A stretch of DNA of 64,000 nt from a virus (IMGVR_UViG_3300014204_007089:1-64000); one strand, 5' to 3'. Counted from the first letter of the stretch, positions 9,491 to 64,000 are shown. Made by a program: numbers and translations. Notes: generated by a model from the sequence alone, not told the origin.

Positions 9491-12400
9491 TTATATTGTT
9501 GTTTTAAATAAACCTTCAACTTCATTGTATCCAATTGTCAATGGTTCATTATTCCATCCAGCCTTTTTTAAATACAGTGTAATAATAATTTTTGTTCTTA
9601 ATTCTGGAATTAATGAGTTACAACTAATATCTTTTACATTCAATGTTAATATTCCAGTAGACTGATCTATATTAACACCAATTGTATTATCAATAATTAT
9701 ACCATAGCCATCTATATCATATCCATCTAAACTTGGATAAATTGATTGAATAGCAACACCAAATCTAATTTGATTCATTAATAAAGCGTCTGATTGAACT
9801 GTTGAACAATCTGCAAATTTAGCTGCACGATATCCGGATTTTGTAAAACCACTATCATTATCATATACTAATTTTTCAAATATATTCAAATTATAACCAT
9901 CATAAAATACTTGTGGTGGTAATTCTAAAGTAATTGTTTGAATTTCTAAATCTTGTTTAAATAAATAACCACTTGTATTTAAAATTTGTCCTTTACCAAT
10001 AATAAGATTATCAGGAATATAAAAATCATTTCTACCAGAAACACAAGATCCGCCAATACTTGTAGTTTCTTGACATATTGAAATTTCAGCAAGGCTTGCA
10101 CAACTGCCAGTTTCACTATTAATATAAGAAGTAGAATTGGTTGGGTAAGTAAATATTGCTGGAACTTGTCTTGCATCACTGCTAAACTGAACAAGATAAT
10201 CTTGCCAAAAAGGCATAGGCTTAATTTTAAATGTTACAGCATTCCAAGGAACTCTTTCAAATGCTGTTGTATTATCAAGTGTAATATCAGGAAGATTATT
10301 ATAACCATAATATTTAAGTTCAATATCTGTTAAAGTTGAAGGATCTGCAATATTATTGTAACCATCAAATGCTATTAAATTATTACAAGTATAATATCCA
10401 TCAAATCTCCCTGTACTATTTTGAACTTCAATTTCAATATGAGTAAAACTCGATGCACCTACAACTAACGTTTCTCGTCTACGATTAACATAGTCTTCAA
10501 TAATTGTTATATCTGAATACGTAATATATCCATCACCATCTACGTCAGCTCTTAATAATTCAAGAGTACTAATATATCCATCTCTAATTAATTCTTGTGT
10601 TGTTATTAATGATAAAGATTGTCCTAATAATTCTATTGCTCTTGCAATATCATATTCATCAATAATTCCATCTCCAAGAACATCACCATACCCATCTACA
10701 CAACTTTTAATTCTAACAATCTTATAATCTAAACTAGCACATCCAGTATCATCTGGAATTAATTTACTACCAATCCATTGTTGAGATTCTATATTAGGAT
10801 CTGGATTAACAATAATATAATGGTTTCCGCGTGCTAATCCTGGATAATATTGCACACCAGTAATTTCTATATTATTCTTAGCATTAATATCTCTTGCACA
10901 TCCTATAACTAAAGGATCTGAAGATTCTCTTAATGTAGCTAATGTTGTATTTGTTACAAAACTAAAACTTGGTTCAAATTTCTGACGAGAATATACTGGA
11001 TTACCAGTTCTTTCATCTTGTTCTTGATCTGATTGCTCCAATATTGCTTCTATAATTGCTGTATTTAATGTATTTTGTCCATTATCAATAAATACATTAT
11101 TATCAAATGAATAATCTACTACAACTCCTAATTCATTTATAGTTGTTTTTAAAATATCTATACCATGACCAGCATCATATGCTTTACCATCAGATACTTT
11201 TGCTGTATCTGTCCATACTTGATACCACATATCTTCTTCAGATACATCGGTCCAATTTCCACTAAATATTGAAAATCTATCATTTATAGAATAACTATTT
11301 CCTATACCAGTAAATAATATACCTGTTGTTGAATCACCAGATCTGTTTATAGAAATAGCATAATATTTACCAGGAATAATTTTAACATTAGATGTACTAC
11401 CAATAAAAGAACCGTTAAATACAAAATCAACTGGTTGTAAAATATCGGTTAAGATATAACCATATTGTTCTAAAGTATCTTTACTTATACTAAGTTGAGT
11501 TATTGGTTCTGGATTTGGCTCAAATTCAATTGCTAATTGTGGTACAAGTTCTGTTGGACAGCTAACAGAACTTTGTAATTCATAAATATTTACTATTAAA
11601 TCACCACTCCAATCAAATACATGATCTATACTTACTGAATCATCTCTTCTAATACCAAGTAATAATGTTATCTTTTGTATATTATTACTTGTAGCTAAAA
11701 ATTTTTGTGCCAAACGTGTTGTAACATCATTTGTTGTTAATTCAATTTCTCTTTTAACAGTAGTATTTATATCTAATGCATCAAAACTATATTCAGATCC
11801 TATTCCAGCCTGAATTGCTTGTGATAATGTTGCAACTGTACCACCTACTATACCTTCAATTACATTTGAAATTCTTAAATCTCTAAAAAAAAGATTAGGT
11901 TCTACATCTTGTGAAATCATAATACAATCACGAGAAAGTTGAAAACTCTTACTTTCTCTTATTATAATTCTACCACCTAGTTTACGAGAACATTTATTAT
12001 TTCCATATACATCATTAAGAAATACGCATAAAATTTTAGTATAATGTTTTTTGGTAACTTGTTTTTCTTTTCTATAAAAATAGAATCTATCATATTGAAG
12101 ATTACCTTGAAAATCTAAACCTATTATAGCAACTTTACTACTAAAACGCCCACCAACAGTGGAAATTCCATTCATATAACCATCATCATCTGAATCAGTT
12201 AATTCAACTTCTAATTGATTTCCTAAAACAGTATCTGTTGAATATTCTATTAATGGACGTAATCCTGTACCATCTAAATCGCAAGAAGCTACTAATGCCA
12301 CTTGATCTGGGAATAAACTATGTGTATCAAAAATAATTTTTTGAATAAAAGATTCTGGTAATACACCAGATCCAAAATGATTTTGTATAATAGATGCATC

Positions 12401-12538
12401 AGTGTTTACATTTCTATCTTGTTCAACAATTAAATCTGTTTGATCCACTCTCTGACCATCATACCAACGATTTTGAATTTTAGATACTTCAGTTCTAGTC
12501 ATAATTTTATTACCTTTATGTGATATAATGTATTCCAA
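9491..12538 (-). CDS. Virion/baseplate-region protein with dockerin-like domain
   Basis: Lies directly after the baseplate genes; paired GDVLGDGIIDEYD / ADVDGDGYITYSD loops; 9 DGY; the true start may be MTRTEV at 12502. Confidence 0.65.
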   Translation of the reverse strand: MEYIISHKGNKIMTRTEVSKIQNRWYDGQRVDQTDLIVEQDRNVNTDASIIQNHFGSGVLPESFIQKIIFDTHSLFPDQVALVASCDLDGTGLRPLIEYSTDTVLGNQLEVELTDSDDDGYMNGISTVGGRFSSKVAIIGLDFQGNLQYDRFYFYRKEKQVTKKHYTKILCVFLNDVYGNNKCSRKLGGRIIIRESKSFQLSRDCIMISQDVEPNLFFRDLRISNVIEGIVGGTVATLSQAIQAGIGSEYSFDALDINTTVKREIELTTNDVTTRLAQKFLATSNNIQKITLLLGIRRDDSVSIDHVFDWSGDLIVNIYELQSSVSCPTELVPQLAIEFEPNPEPITQLSISKDTLEQYGYILTDILQPVDFVFNGSFIGSTSNVKIIPGKYYAISINRSGDSTTGILFTGIGNSYSINDRFSIFSGNWTDVSEEDMWYQVWTDTAKVSDGKAYDAGHGIDILKTTINELGVVVDYSFDNNVFIDNGQNTLNTAIIEAILEQSDQEQDERTGNPVYSRQKFEPSFSFVTNTTLATLRESSDPLVIGCARDINAKNNIEITGVQYYPGLARGNHYIIVNPDPNIESQQWIGSKLIPDDTGCASLDYKIVRIKSCVDGYGDVLGDGIIDEYDIARAIELLGQSLSLITTQELIRDGYISTLELLRADVDGDGYITYSDITIIEDYVNRRRETLVVGASSFTHIEIEVQNSTGRFDGYYTCNNLIAFDGYNNIADPSTLTDIELKYYGYNNLPDITLDNTTAFERVPWNAVTFKIKPMPFWQDYLVQFSSDARQVPAIFTYPTNSTSYINSETGSCASLAEISICQETTSIGGSCVSGRNDFYIPDNLIIGKGQILNTSGYLFKQDLEIQTITLELPPQVFYDGYNLNIFEKLVYDNDSGFTKSGYRAAKFADCSTVQSDALLMNQIRFGVAIQSIYPSLDGYDIDGYGIIIDNTIGVNIDQSTGILTLNVKDISCNSLIPELRTKIIITLYLKKAGWNNEPLTIGYNEVEGLFKTTI

Positions 12539-63500: not shown

Positions 63501-64000
63501 ATAATTGAATAATCAATTCCATTACCAGTAGAGCTGGCTTGTACTATTTTATTAGCATCTCCTGCTCCTGGAACTATTCCATTAATTACAATATCATTTC
63601 CATTTTTATCAGTTGATATTAAATAACCATCTGAATTTCTAAACCATAAAGTTGAACTTCCATCAACTGGATTTCCACCAGGAACTGAATTTTGACCAAC
63701 TAATACTAATCCTGTTGGATCTATTAATCCATCAACCGTTAATTTTCCACCAATTGTTACATTATTTGCAAAATAACTATCGTAATAAACTTCTAATGGT
63801 GCAATATCACAATCTTTATCAATTTTAACAACAAGATTAAATTCAGAATCTAAAAACAGAATTCTTCCATCTAAACCATCAGTAGCTGCACCAGGAAGTA
63901 TTAAAACATCTCCTCCATATAAACTACCTTCTCCAGCATAAATATTAACAGATCCTCCATAATAACCATCACCAGCTTCAATCTGTAAACGTCCACCTAG
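60596..64000 (-). CDS. Tail fibre / adhesin-like protein, 5'-truncated by the window edge (at least 1134 aa)
   Basis: Frame of 60596..62929 stays open to 64000 (LGGRLQIEAGDGYYGG...); beta-helix-like core; three GTSG.TEP.W...TDG...W repeats; 4 DGY. Confidence 0.7.
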   Translation of the reverse strand, partial: LGGRLQIEAGDGYYGGSVNIYAGEGSLYGGDVLILPGAATDGLDGRILFLDSEFNLVVKIDKDCDIAPLEVYYDSYFANNVTIGGKLTVDGLIDPTGLVLVGQNSVPGGNPVDGSSTLWFRNSDGYLISTDKNGNDIVINGIVPGAGDANKIVQASSTGNGIDYSIIESSLSSSIENDGQRHFKRNDTVVITDYPYSASDHYISTTGSINNGSSTLIVADGSELLNNYGIVIQGAGSAHGLKTPNAPEVFQQGTTGASTVEVKVVAATRHRGYTVASSATTIVNAAAAFTKTNWLGVWPEIIPGATWYLIYVRRGGVGSFTLRKVIPGQITLSYSNATGSHRPVVVIDSETAISTLPMFPLTEPVSSQSNYLRTRIISGGGTTNLIINTPARTTVSSLNVYNDNWSAITDALDSFPKMPNSPIYLGGDIEIPRGEFLIWDDIHVMKTSSIRGHGGNWNIPISQIRPIDSLYGLSIDHNRDCPQWTPGVPVKLGDSLRPARYWNNLTYIWECTTPGITGTTYPTFTYTVGTTITDGSVVWTCANYKTITAAQSILEHFGLIAYNKLYIDGVKAPLIPGAFEVAGTEIVANSVHNTYATVKLWTPGGDLVSGRYVVPSDGYETGFRYRIGSSGTSGLTEPIWSKIHNSITLDNGISLTAEWMPVIWGAGILTSAQMSANHVCVTFSSGWAWFLNGKSSGTGTNTDGAIFDNISAYECGGGIYIEGYDASIATFNNAFVGVCGAGLVDLGFYGSRFMNCFWESNYRGPQNSLTGVQSCSRFDGCYWEDVASAAPDHYLYSPSHGSGGVIGAGTLIKGTMKWSPLPSSNGFNYGMVNYNPTCTHPLTSVMSWPGTDYCAFETYTQSDGASQLRGHLRFLFNYTTRIWSMGSRQYSQYKIAYQIEQGSAQGDMFQVDKFHLGVGKSLLSVVSGVPTTGCYQAGDLLLWSNPSRLAIKNKTTGGYCVPLNDGYWTNNQAYGAASSNVIRNTINTHIFAIITGGTSGSVEPTWNTTLGTITTDGSCEWICWSTYAVPEWISQPAPSADIYNLPDSDAGIGYATRRARTTTTYTNHHSITLSAIDAIKGDLIEILRDDSGVSYHAYIKRADTTLIYTLDSKGSVELLFDGTNWIVLRGSSWL

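Follow-up and report, generated by a model that had tools for sequence, protein, structure and literature searches.

Why does one tripeptide, Asp-Gly-Tyr (DGY), recur so often in the structural proteins of an uncultured large phage? The stretch of DNA analysed here (the window, 64,000 nt) carries 56 in-frame DGY motifs within 20,120 residues of minus-strand ORFs. A composition model predicts 4.1 and a first-order Markov model 12.9. The original prediction had tallied the motif by hand and estimated an expectation of 4-5; every per-ORF count (9, 13, 2, 4, 1, 3, 1, 9, 1, 5, 4 and 4) was reproduced exactly. DGY ranked first among all 8000 tripeptides in the window, followed by SSI with 25 (Poisson P ~1e-43 for the DGY excess). 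Shuffling the residues inside each protein 500 times gave a mean of 3.97 DGY (sd 1.96, max 12), and the highest count for any tripeptide was 33. The near-cognates DGF (9), NGY (3), EGY (3) and SGY (5) were not enriched in the window, leaving DGY an extreme outlier against them.

The excess is a property of the peptide. Across the whole 106-kb contig we counted 68 DGY, every one within 13 virion proteins. The corresponding nucleotide pattern, GAYGGNTAY, occurs 70 times on the coding strand, 68 of them in frame, and never on the opposite strand. Several synonymous spellings had been proposed, and these are present at 9704, 10358, 10688, 14607 and 15699. Within the 68 motifs, Gly is written GGA 36, GGT 27, GGG 3 and GGC 2 times, and the codons GAC and TAC appear in 4/68 and 2/68. 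Codon choice within DGY thus mirrors genome-wide usage, indicating that selection acts at the peptide level. When 63-residue segments surrounding each of the 68 sites were compared all against all with BLAST, flank similarity was not significant: the matches were marginal, spanned 16-47 residues (E 0.001-0.006) and were anchored on the motif itself. Neither a common repeat domain nor a tandem repeat family surrounds the sites, in line with the proposal that DGY sits in unrelated folds with variable flanks. We found nothing in favour of an artefact and give it practically no weight. Composition is rejected by the shuffle, Markov and permutation controls, a DNA-level repeat by frame specificity and genome-like synonymous codons, and a repeated domain by the dissimilar flanks; the ~1x level in unrelated loci speaks against an artefact of any kind.

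The carriers and the DGY-free block among them are as follows:

9491..12538, minus strand: distal tail protein, 1015 aa, nine DGY (119, 615, 653, 669, 713, 725, 880, 938, 943)
12516..19256, minus strand: giant distal tail or fibre protein, 2246 aa, 13 DGY
19349..22621, minus strand: baseplate J-like wedge protein, 1090 aa (PF04865 and phrog_6), two DGY (635, 672)
24979..27306, minus strand: tail or baseplate protein, 775 aa, four DGY (370, 422, 641, 705)
27315..38308, minus strand: inner tail block of 682, 1714, 312 (tube-initiator-like) and 914 (tape-measure-like) aa, no DGY in 3622 aa
38645..39337, minus strand: 230-aa protein, one DGY (209), kept in the closest orthologues only
40270..42744, minus strand: tail sheath, 824 aa (phrog_2839; PF04984, weak), three DGY (186, 203, 409)
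42830..43645, minus strand: 271-aa protein between the sheath and neck genes, originally called a terminator, one DGY (125)
43689..48305, minus strand: neck or collar fibre-like protein, 1538 aa, nine DGY
48766..51738, minus strand: 990-aa protein, one DGY (76), conserved in 3/3 aligned members
51767..53377, minus strand: neck protein, 536 aa, five DGY (27, 168, 186, 189, 228)
57715..58098, minus strand: Ig-like protein, 127 aa, four DGY (25, 30, 62, 71)
60596..64000, minus strand: head-decoration-like protein (phrog_20658), C-terminal 1134 of 1635 aa, four DGY inside the window and 12 overall, the gene extending to contig position 65503

Within these proteins, both DGY of the baseplate J-like protein lie in its C-terminal extension, and the conserved J domain (residues 2-254) has none. 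The four in the 775-aa protein are all C-terminal to an N-terminal region with four hydrophobic segments, and those of the sheath all lie outside its conserved C-terminal core (640-819). Orthologues of the inner tail block all lack the motif, as do the tube-like protein at 39469-40134 and its orthologues. The original prediction called the tag virion-wide; this stands for neck, tail, baseplate, fibre and a decoration-like protein and does not extend to the capsid shell, recognisable capsid, portal and terminase genes being absent from the contig. The virion block of this phage holds 68 DGY versus 4.0 expected, and that of a relative, G014, 69 versus 3.8. Non-virion proteins are neutral (0 versus 2.2 expected in this phage; 15 versus 12.5 outside the two DGY-bearing blocks of G014). 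DGY is confined to outward-facing neck, sheath, baseplate, fibre and decoration proteins, at 12-18x chance in the phage and its relatives. The trait is clade-wide, reaching hundreds of relatives: marker-protein homologues number from hundreds to over a thousand, and clade genomes span 100-480 kb.

To define the motif, we pooled 80 related loci (407,586 non-redundant aa), which hold 1018 DGY, a 12.4x enrichment. After masking, the permutations GDY, DYG, YGD, YDG and GYD stood at 0.6-1.2x. The runners-up in each single-position series reached 2.4x (xGY), 2.7x (DGx) and 1.5x (DxY). NGY, EGY, DGF and DGW were at about 1x, the set NGY, DGF, DGI and DGV spanned 0.8-1.1x, and EGY and DGH were depleted. 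Only the ordered D-G-Y is enriched, which implies that the carboxylate (D, not N or E), the Gly and the hydroxyl (Y, not F or W) are all required.

Sites turn over rapidly. Across 11 orthologue families we found 107 DGY sites, of which 67 (63%) occur in one genome only; by themselves these are 5.6x as many as expected in total (P 3.5e-28). Where a DGY column holds something else, a gap is the most frequent state, pointing to gain by insertion. In the giant distal tail or fibre protein, an alignment of five orthologues gives 29 DGY columns, the majority lineage-specific, and five of the window protein's own motifs lie in insertions; the neck or collar fibre-like protein has a lineage-specific insert with three DGY in 18 residues (324, 333, 339). 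Orthologues of the 1015-aa distal tail protein in G002-G005, G014, G024, G026 and G029 carry 3-10 each. Other sites persist: sheath 186 and 203 are kept in 4/4 aligned members (the window protein and three orthologues), residue 125 of the 271-aa protein is invariant in 5/5, and among 120 neck protein homologues DGY is found at 27 in 99, at 186 in 112 and at 228 in 110, as islands within flanks that are 30-60% conserved. The idea that the sites are lineage-specific insertions therefore holds for many, and a minority is conserved in homologues. Of the refuting observations named in the original prediction, the sequence analysis yielded just this minority. With a few conserved islands amid rapid turnover, DGY evolves in a sequon-like way, as a tag that is read would.

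Two AlphaFold2 models place DGY in loops, as anticipated. The neck protein (m14717ce3aa89, pLDDT 87) has FN3-like domains at its N-terminus, a neck/stopper fold, and His-x-His motifs at its C-terminus, and Foldseek matched it to FN3 domains and the phage neck proteins 8hdr_A, 8q01_S and 9xps_B. The Ig-like protein (m5fde81a0309c) is a seven-strand sandwich with Ig V-like Foldseek matches, and all four of its DGY fall within two long low-confidence loops (22-34 and 61-74, pLDDT ~55), the second of which is a 16-residue insert particular to close relatives. In homologues, the same loop has grown into arrays, for example DGY-YA-DGY-YA-DGY-TI-DGY, with nine DGY in G014. A His/Cys-rich insert immediately follows the G014 array.

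These structures bear on whether DGY is simply structural and particular to this lineage: a turn at D-G and then a strand-starting Tyr, favoured in beta-rich outer domains, perhaps because a clade-specific chaperone or folding pathway prefers it. At several sites in the neck model, D and G lie in coil and Y opens a strand or bridge, and several sites are conserved across 40-100% identity, lost ones being replaced mostly by NGY or DGF. However, generic turns would also raise NGY, DGF, DGI and DGV; low-confidence loop arrays and lineage-specific, insertion-gained sites misfit a fold-stabilising turn; and the equally beta-rich virion modules of unrelated jumbo phages show DGY at ~1x. We consider this explanation quite unlikely. 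Some sites are nevertheless highly conserved and well ordered (neck 186-191, pLDDT above 90), which would fit a structural or ligand-binding role too.

Non-covalent docking, one of several roles that the original prediction listed and that rival glycosylation alongside cross-linking and metal binding, is unlikely. Here an exposed carboxylate (Asp) and hydroxyl (Tyr), separated by a single flexible Gly, would make up a small site that binds a decoration or cement protein, the phage's or host's glycan, or an environmental polymer, with copies selected for avidity. Loop placement, arrays and turnover agree with avidity-driven binding, both functional groups are strictly needed, and several carriers have lectin-like, dockerin-like, FN3 or Ig-like modules, among them a weak concanavalin-A-like lectin (Laminin_G_3) match at residues 1216-1312 of the giant distal tail or fibre protein. 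Against it, three residues are very short for specific protein docking, sticky Tyr/Asp/Gly loops would raise the permutations as well, which stand at about 1x, and no candidate reader protein was identified.

A hard-metal site loading the outer virion with Fe3+ or Ca2+ has a slim chance. Asp and Tyr are ligand types in transferrin-like iron centres, and His-x-His motifs bind iron in T4-type fibres. About one-fifth of DGY lie 3-5 residues from another, and pairs such as DGYDGY or DGYxxDGY would supply two Asp and two Tyr; the His-x-His motifs of the neck protein, the insert beside the G014 array and a dockerin-like Ca-loop domain (617-685) holding three DGY of the distal tail protein would also fit. 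Yet the majority of motifs are isolated, and E or H, acceptable as ligands, give depleted tripeptides. Around the 1018 motifs Asp stands at 0.5x at -2 and 1.3x at -4, unlike a DxDxDG calcium motif; the DxDxDG/dockerin/EF-hand pattern (Asp/Asn at -4 and -2, an acidic residue six later) fits only the dockerin-like domain.

If DGY is read by an enzyme, which genes could encode it? Two regions came into consideration:

4883..5743, minus strand: GT-B-like protein (weak Glyco_trans_1_3 match), no DGY
contig 96.8-104.1 kb: eight-gene glycosyltransferase cluster, GT11, GT2, GT10, GT2, GT9-like (Atlas lead), GT2, GT2, GT4

The first is conserved in DGY-rich relatives and missing from two complete sister genomes; its product is possibly an accessory enzyme with no tie to DGY. 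The enzyme genes at 889-9395, beside the structural operon, have the look of genes that modify nucleic acids and not of protein writers, and the better candidates lie outside the window in the cluster. Upstream of the cluster are Gmd, two further SDRs, a sugar C-methyltransferase, two FkbM methyltransferases, two Sulfotransfer_2 proteins and one GNAT; the phage carries GDP-fucose genes. The GT4 gene closes the tail operon in every lineage examined (G014, G016, G018, G024, G026 and G029), right after the two DGY-richest genes, the 1015-aa distal tail gene always being the final structural gene ahead of it. GT4 homologues at 37-55% identity occur in G021-G025, G026 and G029; at E<=1e-10 the family comprises 706 members.

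Lineages with the multi-GT block have DGY at 17-18x, a sister lineage retaining GT4 without that block at 3.3-4.2x (chiefly in the two tail proteins adjoining GT4), and unrelated loci at ~1x, a graded contrast favouring glycosylation, although it comprises few independent contrasts between lineages that differ in many other genes too. The correlation is also imperfect. The sister keeps GT4; in G029, a fragment rich in DGY, no GT2 lies close to GT4, and the genes after GT4 there are GNATs, a weak NTP-transferase match and an SDR; and one GT2 has no homologue in G024, a complete genome that is DGY-rich. The co-occurring enzymes that the original prediction proposed to look for are present as a phage glycosylation apparatus, and no single gene tracks DGY density perfectly among the compared lineages. 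The cluster could instead modify DNA or the host envelope. DGY is not avoided in the phage's non-virion proteins. This argues against a promiscuous cytoplasmic writer, as such an enzyme might impose avoidance.

A non-glycan modification at DGY would draw on the same motif statistics: Tyr phosphorylation, nucleotidylation, sulfation, Tyr-based cross-linking, or Asp-Gly succinimide chemistry giving isoaspartate or cross-links that harden the particle. Asp-Gly is the dipeptide most prone to succinimide, Lys is scarcer than expected around DGY in the 80 loci, and the phage encodes two sulfotransferases. However, NGY would form succinimide faster and stands at 0.76x. The sulfotransferases are of carbohydrate type (PF03567) with no homologues in G001-G005, G014, G016 and G018, whereas DGY is clade-wide, and among the genes conserved alongside DGY none for a kinase, Fic protein or oxidase turned up. 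We regard such a modification as improbable.

Building on the observed motif statistics, specificity and turnover, on the two models that put DGY in loops and on the neighbouring genes, we tentatively favour, at somewhat under an even chance, DGY as a sequon for cytoplasmic virion glycosylation, probably on Tyr. The tripeptide would lie on solvent-exposed parts of outer virion proteins, and a soluble glycosyltransferase encoded by the phage would recognise it in the cytoplasm of the host, either ahead of particle assembly or while this proceeds; the universally conserved GT4 is the best candidate for that enzyme. A sugar would be attached, the Tyr hydroxyl being the likeliest acceptor, and recognition or base assistance would come from the Asp carboxylate and the flexible Gly. 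In this phage, GT2, GT9-like, GT10 and GT11 enzymes may extend the first sugar into a fucosylated, decorated glycan coat, supplied by Gmd/Fcl-type nucleotide-sugar genes and tailored by methyl-, acetyl- and sulfotransferases. The original notion of a short linear recognition motif holds in that DGY is sequence-specific, acts at the peptide level and sits on outer virion proteins; glycan attachment, acceptor atom and choice of reading transferase we infer.

Known systems offer partial parallels, and we found no publication describing a DGY motif. GtfA/B (GT4) glycosylate serine-rich adhesins and TibC/AAH (GT9-like) autotransporters; these soluble, cytoplasmic GT-B-type enzymes modify Ser/Thr at many sites on repetitive surface proteins before export. 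The phage similarly encodes both a GT4 and a GT9-like protein, although none of its transferases resembles a known protein glycosyltransferase in sequence beyond the family fold. Chloroviruses encode their own glycosylation machinery, with nucleotide-sugar and transferase genes and atypical sequons, and animal-virus envelope proteins gain and lose glycan sites while maintaining density; both differ from the phage in their eukaryotic hosts, N-linked glycans and proteins.

Mycobacteriophages glycosylate their virions with phage-encoded glycosyltransferases, on the C-termini of capsid and tail-tube subunits, according to the summary of Freeman et al. 2023 in PMC12619734. The candidate system here would likewise use soluble phage enzymes on the phage's own structural proteins in the cytoplasm to build a glycan coat, with transferase genes linked to structural ones (GT4 after the distal tail genes; the eight-gene cluster). 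In contrast, DGY is a dispersed tripeptide on neck, sheath, baseplate and fibre and is not C-terminal; the tube has none, and capsid genes lie off the contig. Related large phages are predicted to infect Bacteroidota (PMC12619734), and Bacteroidetes general O-glycosylation uses a three-residue motif, D-(S/T)-(A/I/L/V/M/T/...), with fucose-containing glycans (PMC8698959). Both motifs begin with Asp and mark hundreds of sites on unrelated proteins, glycosylation being putative here. The Bacteroidetes glycan is lipid-linked and transferred outside the cytoplasm onto Ser/Thr at position 2, whereas the sole hydroxyl of DGY is Tyr at position 3 and its carriers are assembled in the cytoplasm. Nor was membrane machinery seen: on the contig fragment, a crude hydropathy scan found no polytopic membrane protein in the glycan cluster or other non-structural genes, hence no candidate for a lipid-linked donor pathway, flippase or membrane oligosaccharyltransferase, and Pfam gave only soluble GT families. 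S-layer proteins of Paenibacillus alvei and Thermoanaerobacter are a precedent for Tyr O-glycosylation on prokaryotic surface arrays, but through an O-oligosaccharyltransferase and lipid-linked donors at a few sites, and the review cited reports no DGY context (PMC2943079). No OTase-like gene was seen in the phage. Like N-X-S/T and D-S/T-X, DGY is a short fixed motif on many unrelated proteins, with a putative acceptor role.

Overall, our analyses raise the possible, if doubtful, prospect of a huge-phage clade with a dedicated Tyr-directed D-G-Y code, read by a soluble GT4, whose glycan covers the outer virion. If true, this would be the first tyrosine sequon to operate in the cytoplasm and, for phages, the first glycosylation code to span the virion; quick gains and losses would tune how many sites there are, in a manner resembling the glycan shields of animal viruses.

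The window has a GC content of ~28%, and every gene lies on the minus strand. We translated the 38 window ORFs of 100 aa or more (20,120 aa) and observed 56 copies of the exact tripeptide Asp-Gly-Tyr (DGY) across 12 ORFs, reproducing exactly the ORF-by-ORF counts of the original prediction; 4.1 were expected by composition and 12.9 by a first-order Markov model. DGY ranked first among all tripeptides, the second being SSI with 25. In 500 within-protein residue shuffles, DGY reached a mean of 3.97 and a maximum of 12, and no tripeptide exceeded 33. Unlike DGY, the near-cognate tripeptides DGF, NGY, EGY, SGY, and DGW were at expectation in the window. 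The window is the initial 64 kb of one 106,130-bp virus contig; on the full contig, we found 68 in-frame DGY, confined to 13 structural ORFs, and none in the ~14,800 aa of its other proteins. At the DNA level, GAYGGNTAY occurred 70 times on the coding strand of the contig, 68 of them in frame, and not once on the opposite strand. Codons within DGY matched genome-wide usage, and the synonymous variants first reported were found at their positions. Given this restriction to one frame and one strand and the genome-like codon choice, the signal lies at the peptide level, as had been proposed. Moreover, the flanks of the 68 sites showed no significant similarity to one another, and so DGY is not part of a repeated domain. 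Overall, an artefactual origin of the enrichment is excluded.

We identified the carriers of DGY with Pfam, PHROGs, and two AlphaFold models, as follows.

DGY-carrying proteins of the contig
Baseplate J-like protein (minus strand): motifs outside the conserved core
Sheath (minus strand): motifs outside the conserved core
Window 51767..53377 (minus strand): neck protein combining FN3 domains with a stopper or neck fold; His-x-His motifs at the C terminus
Window 57715..58098 (minus strand): Ig-like protein of 127 aa
Protein with a head-decoration-like domain
Giant distal tail proteins: a dockerin-like domain in one, a weak lectin-like match in another
Beyond the window: tail fibre with an endosialidase-chaperone domain

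Inner proteins (tube-like, tube-initiator, tape-measure-like, and one of 1714 aa) lacked DGY, as did their orthologues. The idea of a virion-wide tag is therefore borne out for the neck, sheath, baseplate, distal tail, fibre, and decoration-like proteins but not for the inner tail. No capsid, portal, or terminase gene was recognisable on the 106,130-bp fragment, so that this survey of carriers covers proteins outside the capsid shell. A tblastn search of 50,697 phage records with the sheath yielded nothing beyond a match of 27%, to Bacillus phage G, and hence there is no cultured relative at hand.

Several carriers have further features. In the ORF at 9491-12538, a double Ca-loop domain resembling dockerin type I (PF00404, 29 bits; window 10490-10690, residues 617-685) contains three DGY, one within a canonical D-x-D-G-D-G-Y loop. 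The C terminus of the neck protein (window 51767-51900) has three His-x-His motifs (HMH, HGH, and HSH), whose histidines are invariant in 76 homologues. These motifs are like those of T4-type fibre tips, where they bind iron; in related loci, HTH, HNH, and HSH also rank near the top of the enriched tripeptides. Lastly, a 775-aa tail protein (window 24979-27306, minus strand) has four hydrophobic TM-like segments (residues 88-217) preceding its DGY-bearing part; it may insert into membranes as a component of the baseplate or of ejection.

To gauge specificity, we collected 80 IMG/VR loci surrounding neck-protein homologues (37-67% identity to the query, GC 27-45%, contigs up to 480 kb). These contained 1018 DGY in 407,586 non-redundant aa, a 12.4-fold enrichment, and DGY was the top tripeptide in most loci. 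With DGY masked, the other five orderings of D, G, and Y were at 0.6- to 1.2-fold; the runner-up residue in each single-position series reached only 2.4-, 2.7-, and 1.5-fold, and the one-mutation neighbours NGY, EGY, DAY, and DGH were mildly depleted. The need for the strict D-G-Y order implies that something reads the carboxylate and the phenol hydroxyl along with the glycine, whether enzyme, partner, or ligand. That DGY is a docking or ligand-binding motif seems to us doubtful. As negative controls, DGY was at ~1-fold in 37 loci of other jumbo phages, found via a weak C-terminal match, and at 1- to 4-fold in a sister lineage with a ~660-aa neck protein. Counts in three large genomes were as follows.

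DGY observed and expected inside and outside the virion block
G014 (392 kb, DGY-rich): virion block 69 vs 3.8 expected; rest 23 vs 13.2
G016 (335 kb, complete, sister lineage): virion block 17 vs 4.0 expected; rest 15 vs 12.7
G018 (317 kb, 94% complete, sister lineage): virion block 15 vs 4.5 expected; rest 13 vs 13.2

When a second DGY-bearing block of G014 (20-31 kb) was also removed, its remainder held 15 against 12.5 expected.

We then aligned 11 orthologue families, drawing on as many as six genomes, to follow individual sites. Most DGY sites are young. DGY occurred in a single genome at 67 of 107 columns, where the other genomes most often show a gap; these 67 sites alone amount to 5.6-fold the total composition expectation (P 3.5e-28). 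The possibility that DGY are lineage-specific insertions thus holds for many of these columns but not for three sites of the neck protein, which are conserved in 83-93% of 120 homologues amid flanks that are merely 30-60% conserved. In the AlphaFold model of the Ig-like protein, all four DGY fall within two long loops modelled at low confidence. One loop is an insert with two DGY common only to the closest homologues of the window, and the first loop is expanded to DGY arrays elsewhere: a 122-aa homologue has four DGY spaced by two residues, and a 301-aa homologue has nine. We judged exposure by secondary structure, by the confidence of the models, and by indels. That DGY is instead a clade-specific structural turn appears improbable. 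In the Ig-like homologue of G014 (332550-333452), a ~90-residue His/Cys/Asp/Trp-rich insert with a six-His run directly follows the DGY array. A hard-metal site is hinted at by paired motifs, the His-x-His fibres, and this His-rich insert beside one array, and we consider it very unlikely.

In a quick tree of neck homologues, DGY-rich proteins fell into three separate clades (A2, B1a, and B2); clade A1 has one DGY in its neck protein, yet is enriched 14- to 30-fold over the locus. On this distribution, the trait appears old and widespread in the group and reduced in lineage B1b. The neck homologues P0199, P0220, and P0235 are free of DGY. P0199 and P0230 had no matching locus in IMG/VR; P0199 had one metagenome locus (8.8 kb), an uninformative stretch of mostly inner tail genes.

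Which gene might read DGY? Beyond the tail operon, window 889-9395 holds enzyme genes, including a weak GT-B match.

Enzyme genes near the start of the window
889-3811 (minus strand): radical SAM protein; fusion of GP88 and nucleoside 2-deoxyribosyltransferase
6799-9395 (minus strand): RNase T; GidA/TrmFO-like flavoprotein

This set resembles a DNA or nucleotide modification module. The contents point mostly to nucleic-acid modification, and we set the cluster aside as the DGY writer on that ground.

The contig genes at 81-104 kb are stronger candidates. They comprise Gmd, two further SDRs, a sugar C-methyltransferase, two FkbM methyltransferases, two carbohydrate-type sulfotransferases, and a GNAT, then, in order, GT11, GT2, GT10, GT2, GT9-like, GT2, GT2, and GT4; the GT9-like assignment is an ESM Atlas lead (score 0.97, TM 0.66). 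A crude hydropathy scan found no polytopic membrane protein among these glycan genes, and the pathway therefore looks soluble, in contrast to envelope polysaccharide synthesis. Searching solved structures with the GT9-like, GT2, and GT4 sequences gave nothing or generic transferases (TarS, BshA-like, and SpsA) and did not tie these enzymes to any known protein glycosyltransferase. The cluster also holds two inserted TnpB/IS605 OrfB-like genes (contig 86.9-93.3 kb; L003:8925-10073 and L003:14041-15336).

GT4 is the first gene, or the first past one small ORF, after the two DGY-richest distal tail genes, an arrangement seen in six related genomes (G014, G016, G018, G024, G026, and G029) of clades B2, B1b, A1, and A2. 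Homologues with 37-55% identity occur in G021-G025, G026, and G029; with 706 members at E<=1e-10, this family shows 46-74% identity conservation. A multi-GT2 block adjoins GT4 in near relatives and clade A1; it is absent from two complete sister genomes, themselves only 3- to 4-fold DGY-enriched, and from the DGY-rich clade A2 fragment G029, where GT4 is followed by two GNATs, a weak match to nucleotidyltransferases, and an SDR. In the complete genome G024, which is DGY-rich, one of the GT2s lacks a homologue. The sulfotransferases occurred in this phage only among the relatives compared, and this lack of conservation led us to reject them as the reader. The gene-motif association spans few independent contrasts, with exceptions. 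A 216-aa protein without a Pfam match (contig 94627-95274; L004:624-1274) has homologues adjoining GT4 in distant G024 (two copies), G001, G004, G005, and G014, and this unannotated family moves together with the transferase genes.

Other genes of the contig were also noted. A class-V aminotransferase/cysteine-desulfurase-like PLP enzyme (window 59452-60528, minus strand; PF00266, E 3e-28) lies within the neck and decoration block; it is 61-69% conserved in DGY-rich G001, G003, and G014, whereas neither complete sister genome has it. An HNH-type endonuclease gene (window 55568-56713, minus strand; phrog_4645) is inserted amid structural genes, with homologues at varying places in relatives, the pattern that a homing endonuclease would give. 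The ribonucleotide reductase large subunit (contig 68150-72073; L002:8150-12073) is split by a LAGLIDADG domain, probably an intein. A tubulin/FtsZ-family (PhuZ-like) gene (contig 79121-80494; L003:1121-2494) is 39-76% conserved across DGY-rich and sister lineages.

We tentatively favour the view that DGY is a sequon for cytoplasmic glycosylation and that a phage transferase reads it, a reading that may well prove wrong; GT4 would be the best candidate initiator and Tyr the likely acceptor of the sugar. We reasoned so because DGY is restricted to outward-facing proteins, sits in loops, forms arrays, and is gained by insertion with density kept, and because a soluble transferase gene is universally linked, with lineage-specific glycan-building genes around it. 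Another modification or a cross-link at DGY is an unlikely alternative to glycosylation. For the favoured glycosylation, each element has a separate precedent, and none combines them: Bacteroidetes O-glycosylation uses a three-residue, Asp-first sequon (PMC8698959), S-layer glycans can be linked via Tyr (PMC2943079), and virion glycosylation in mycobacteriophages is cited in PMC12619734. Our literature search found no paper describing a DGY motif.

If DGY is a modification code, it would provide a sequence-readable map of the exposed, decorated surfaces on a giant phage particle. It would also represent a new enzyme-sequon pair, usable in site-specific protein tagging, and virion glycosylation, a trait of a few mycobacteriophages, would then reach a very large environmental clade as well. 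Whether or not this reading is right, a tripeptide that is enriched 12- to 18-fold and continually gained on unrelated proteins strongly signals, in a way still unexplained, a three-residue reader, and DGY can serve as a marker for outer virion proteins within otherwise unannotatable genomes.
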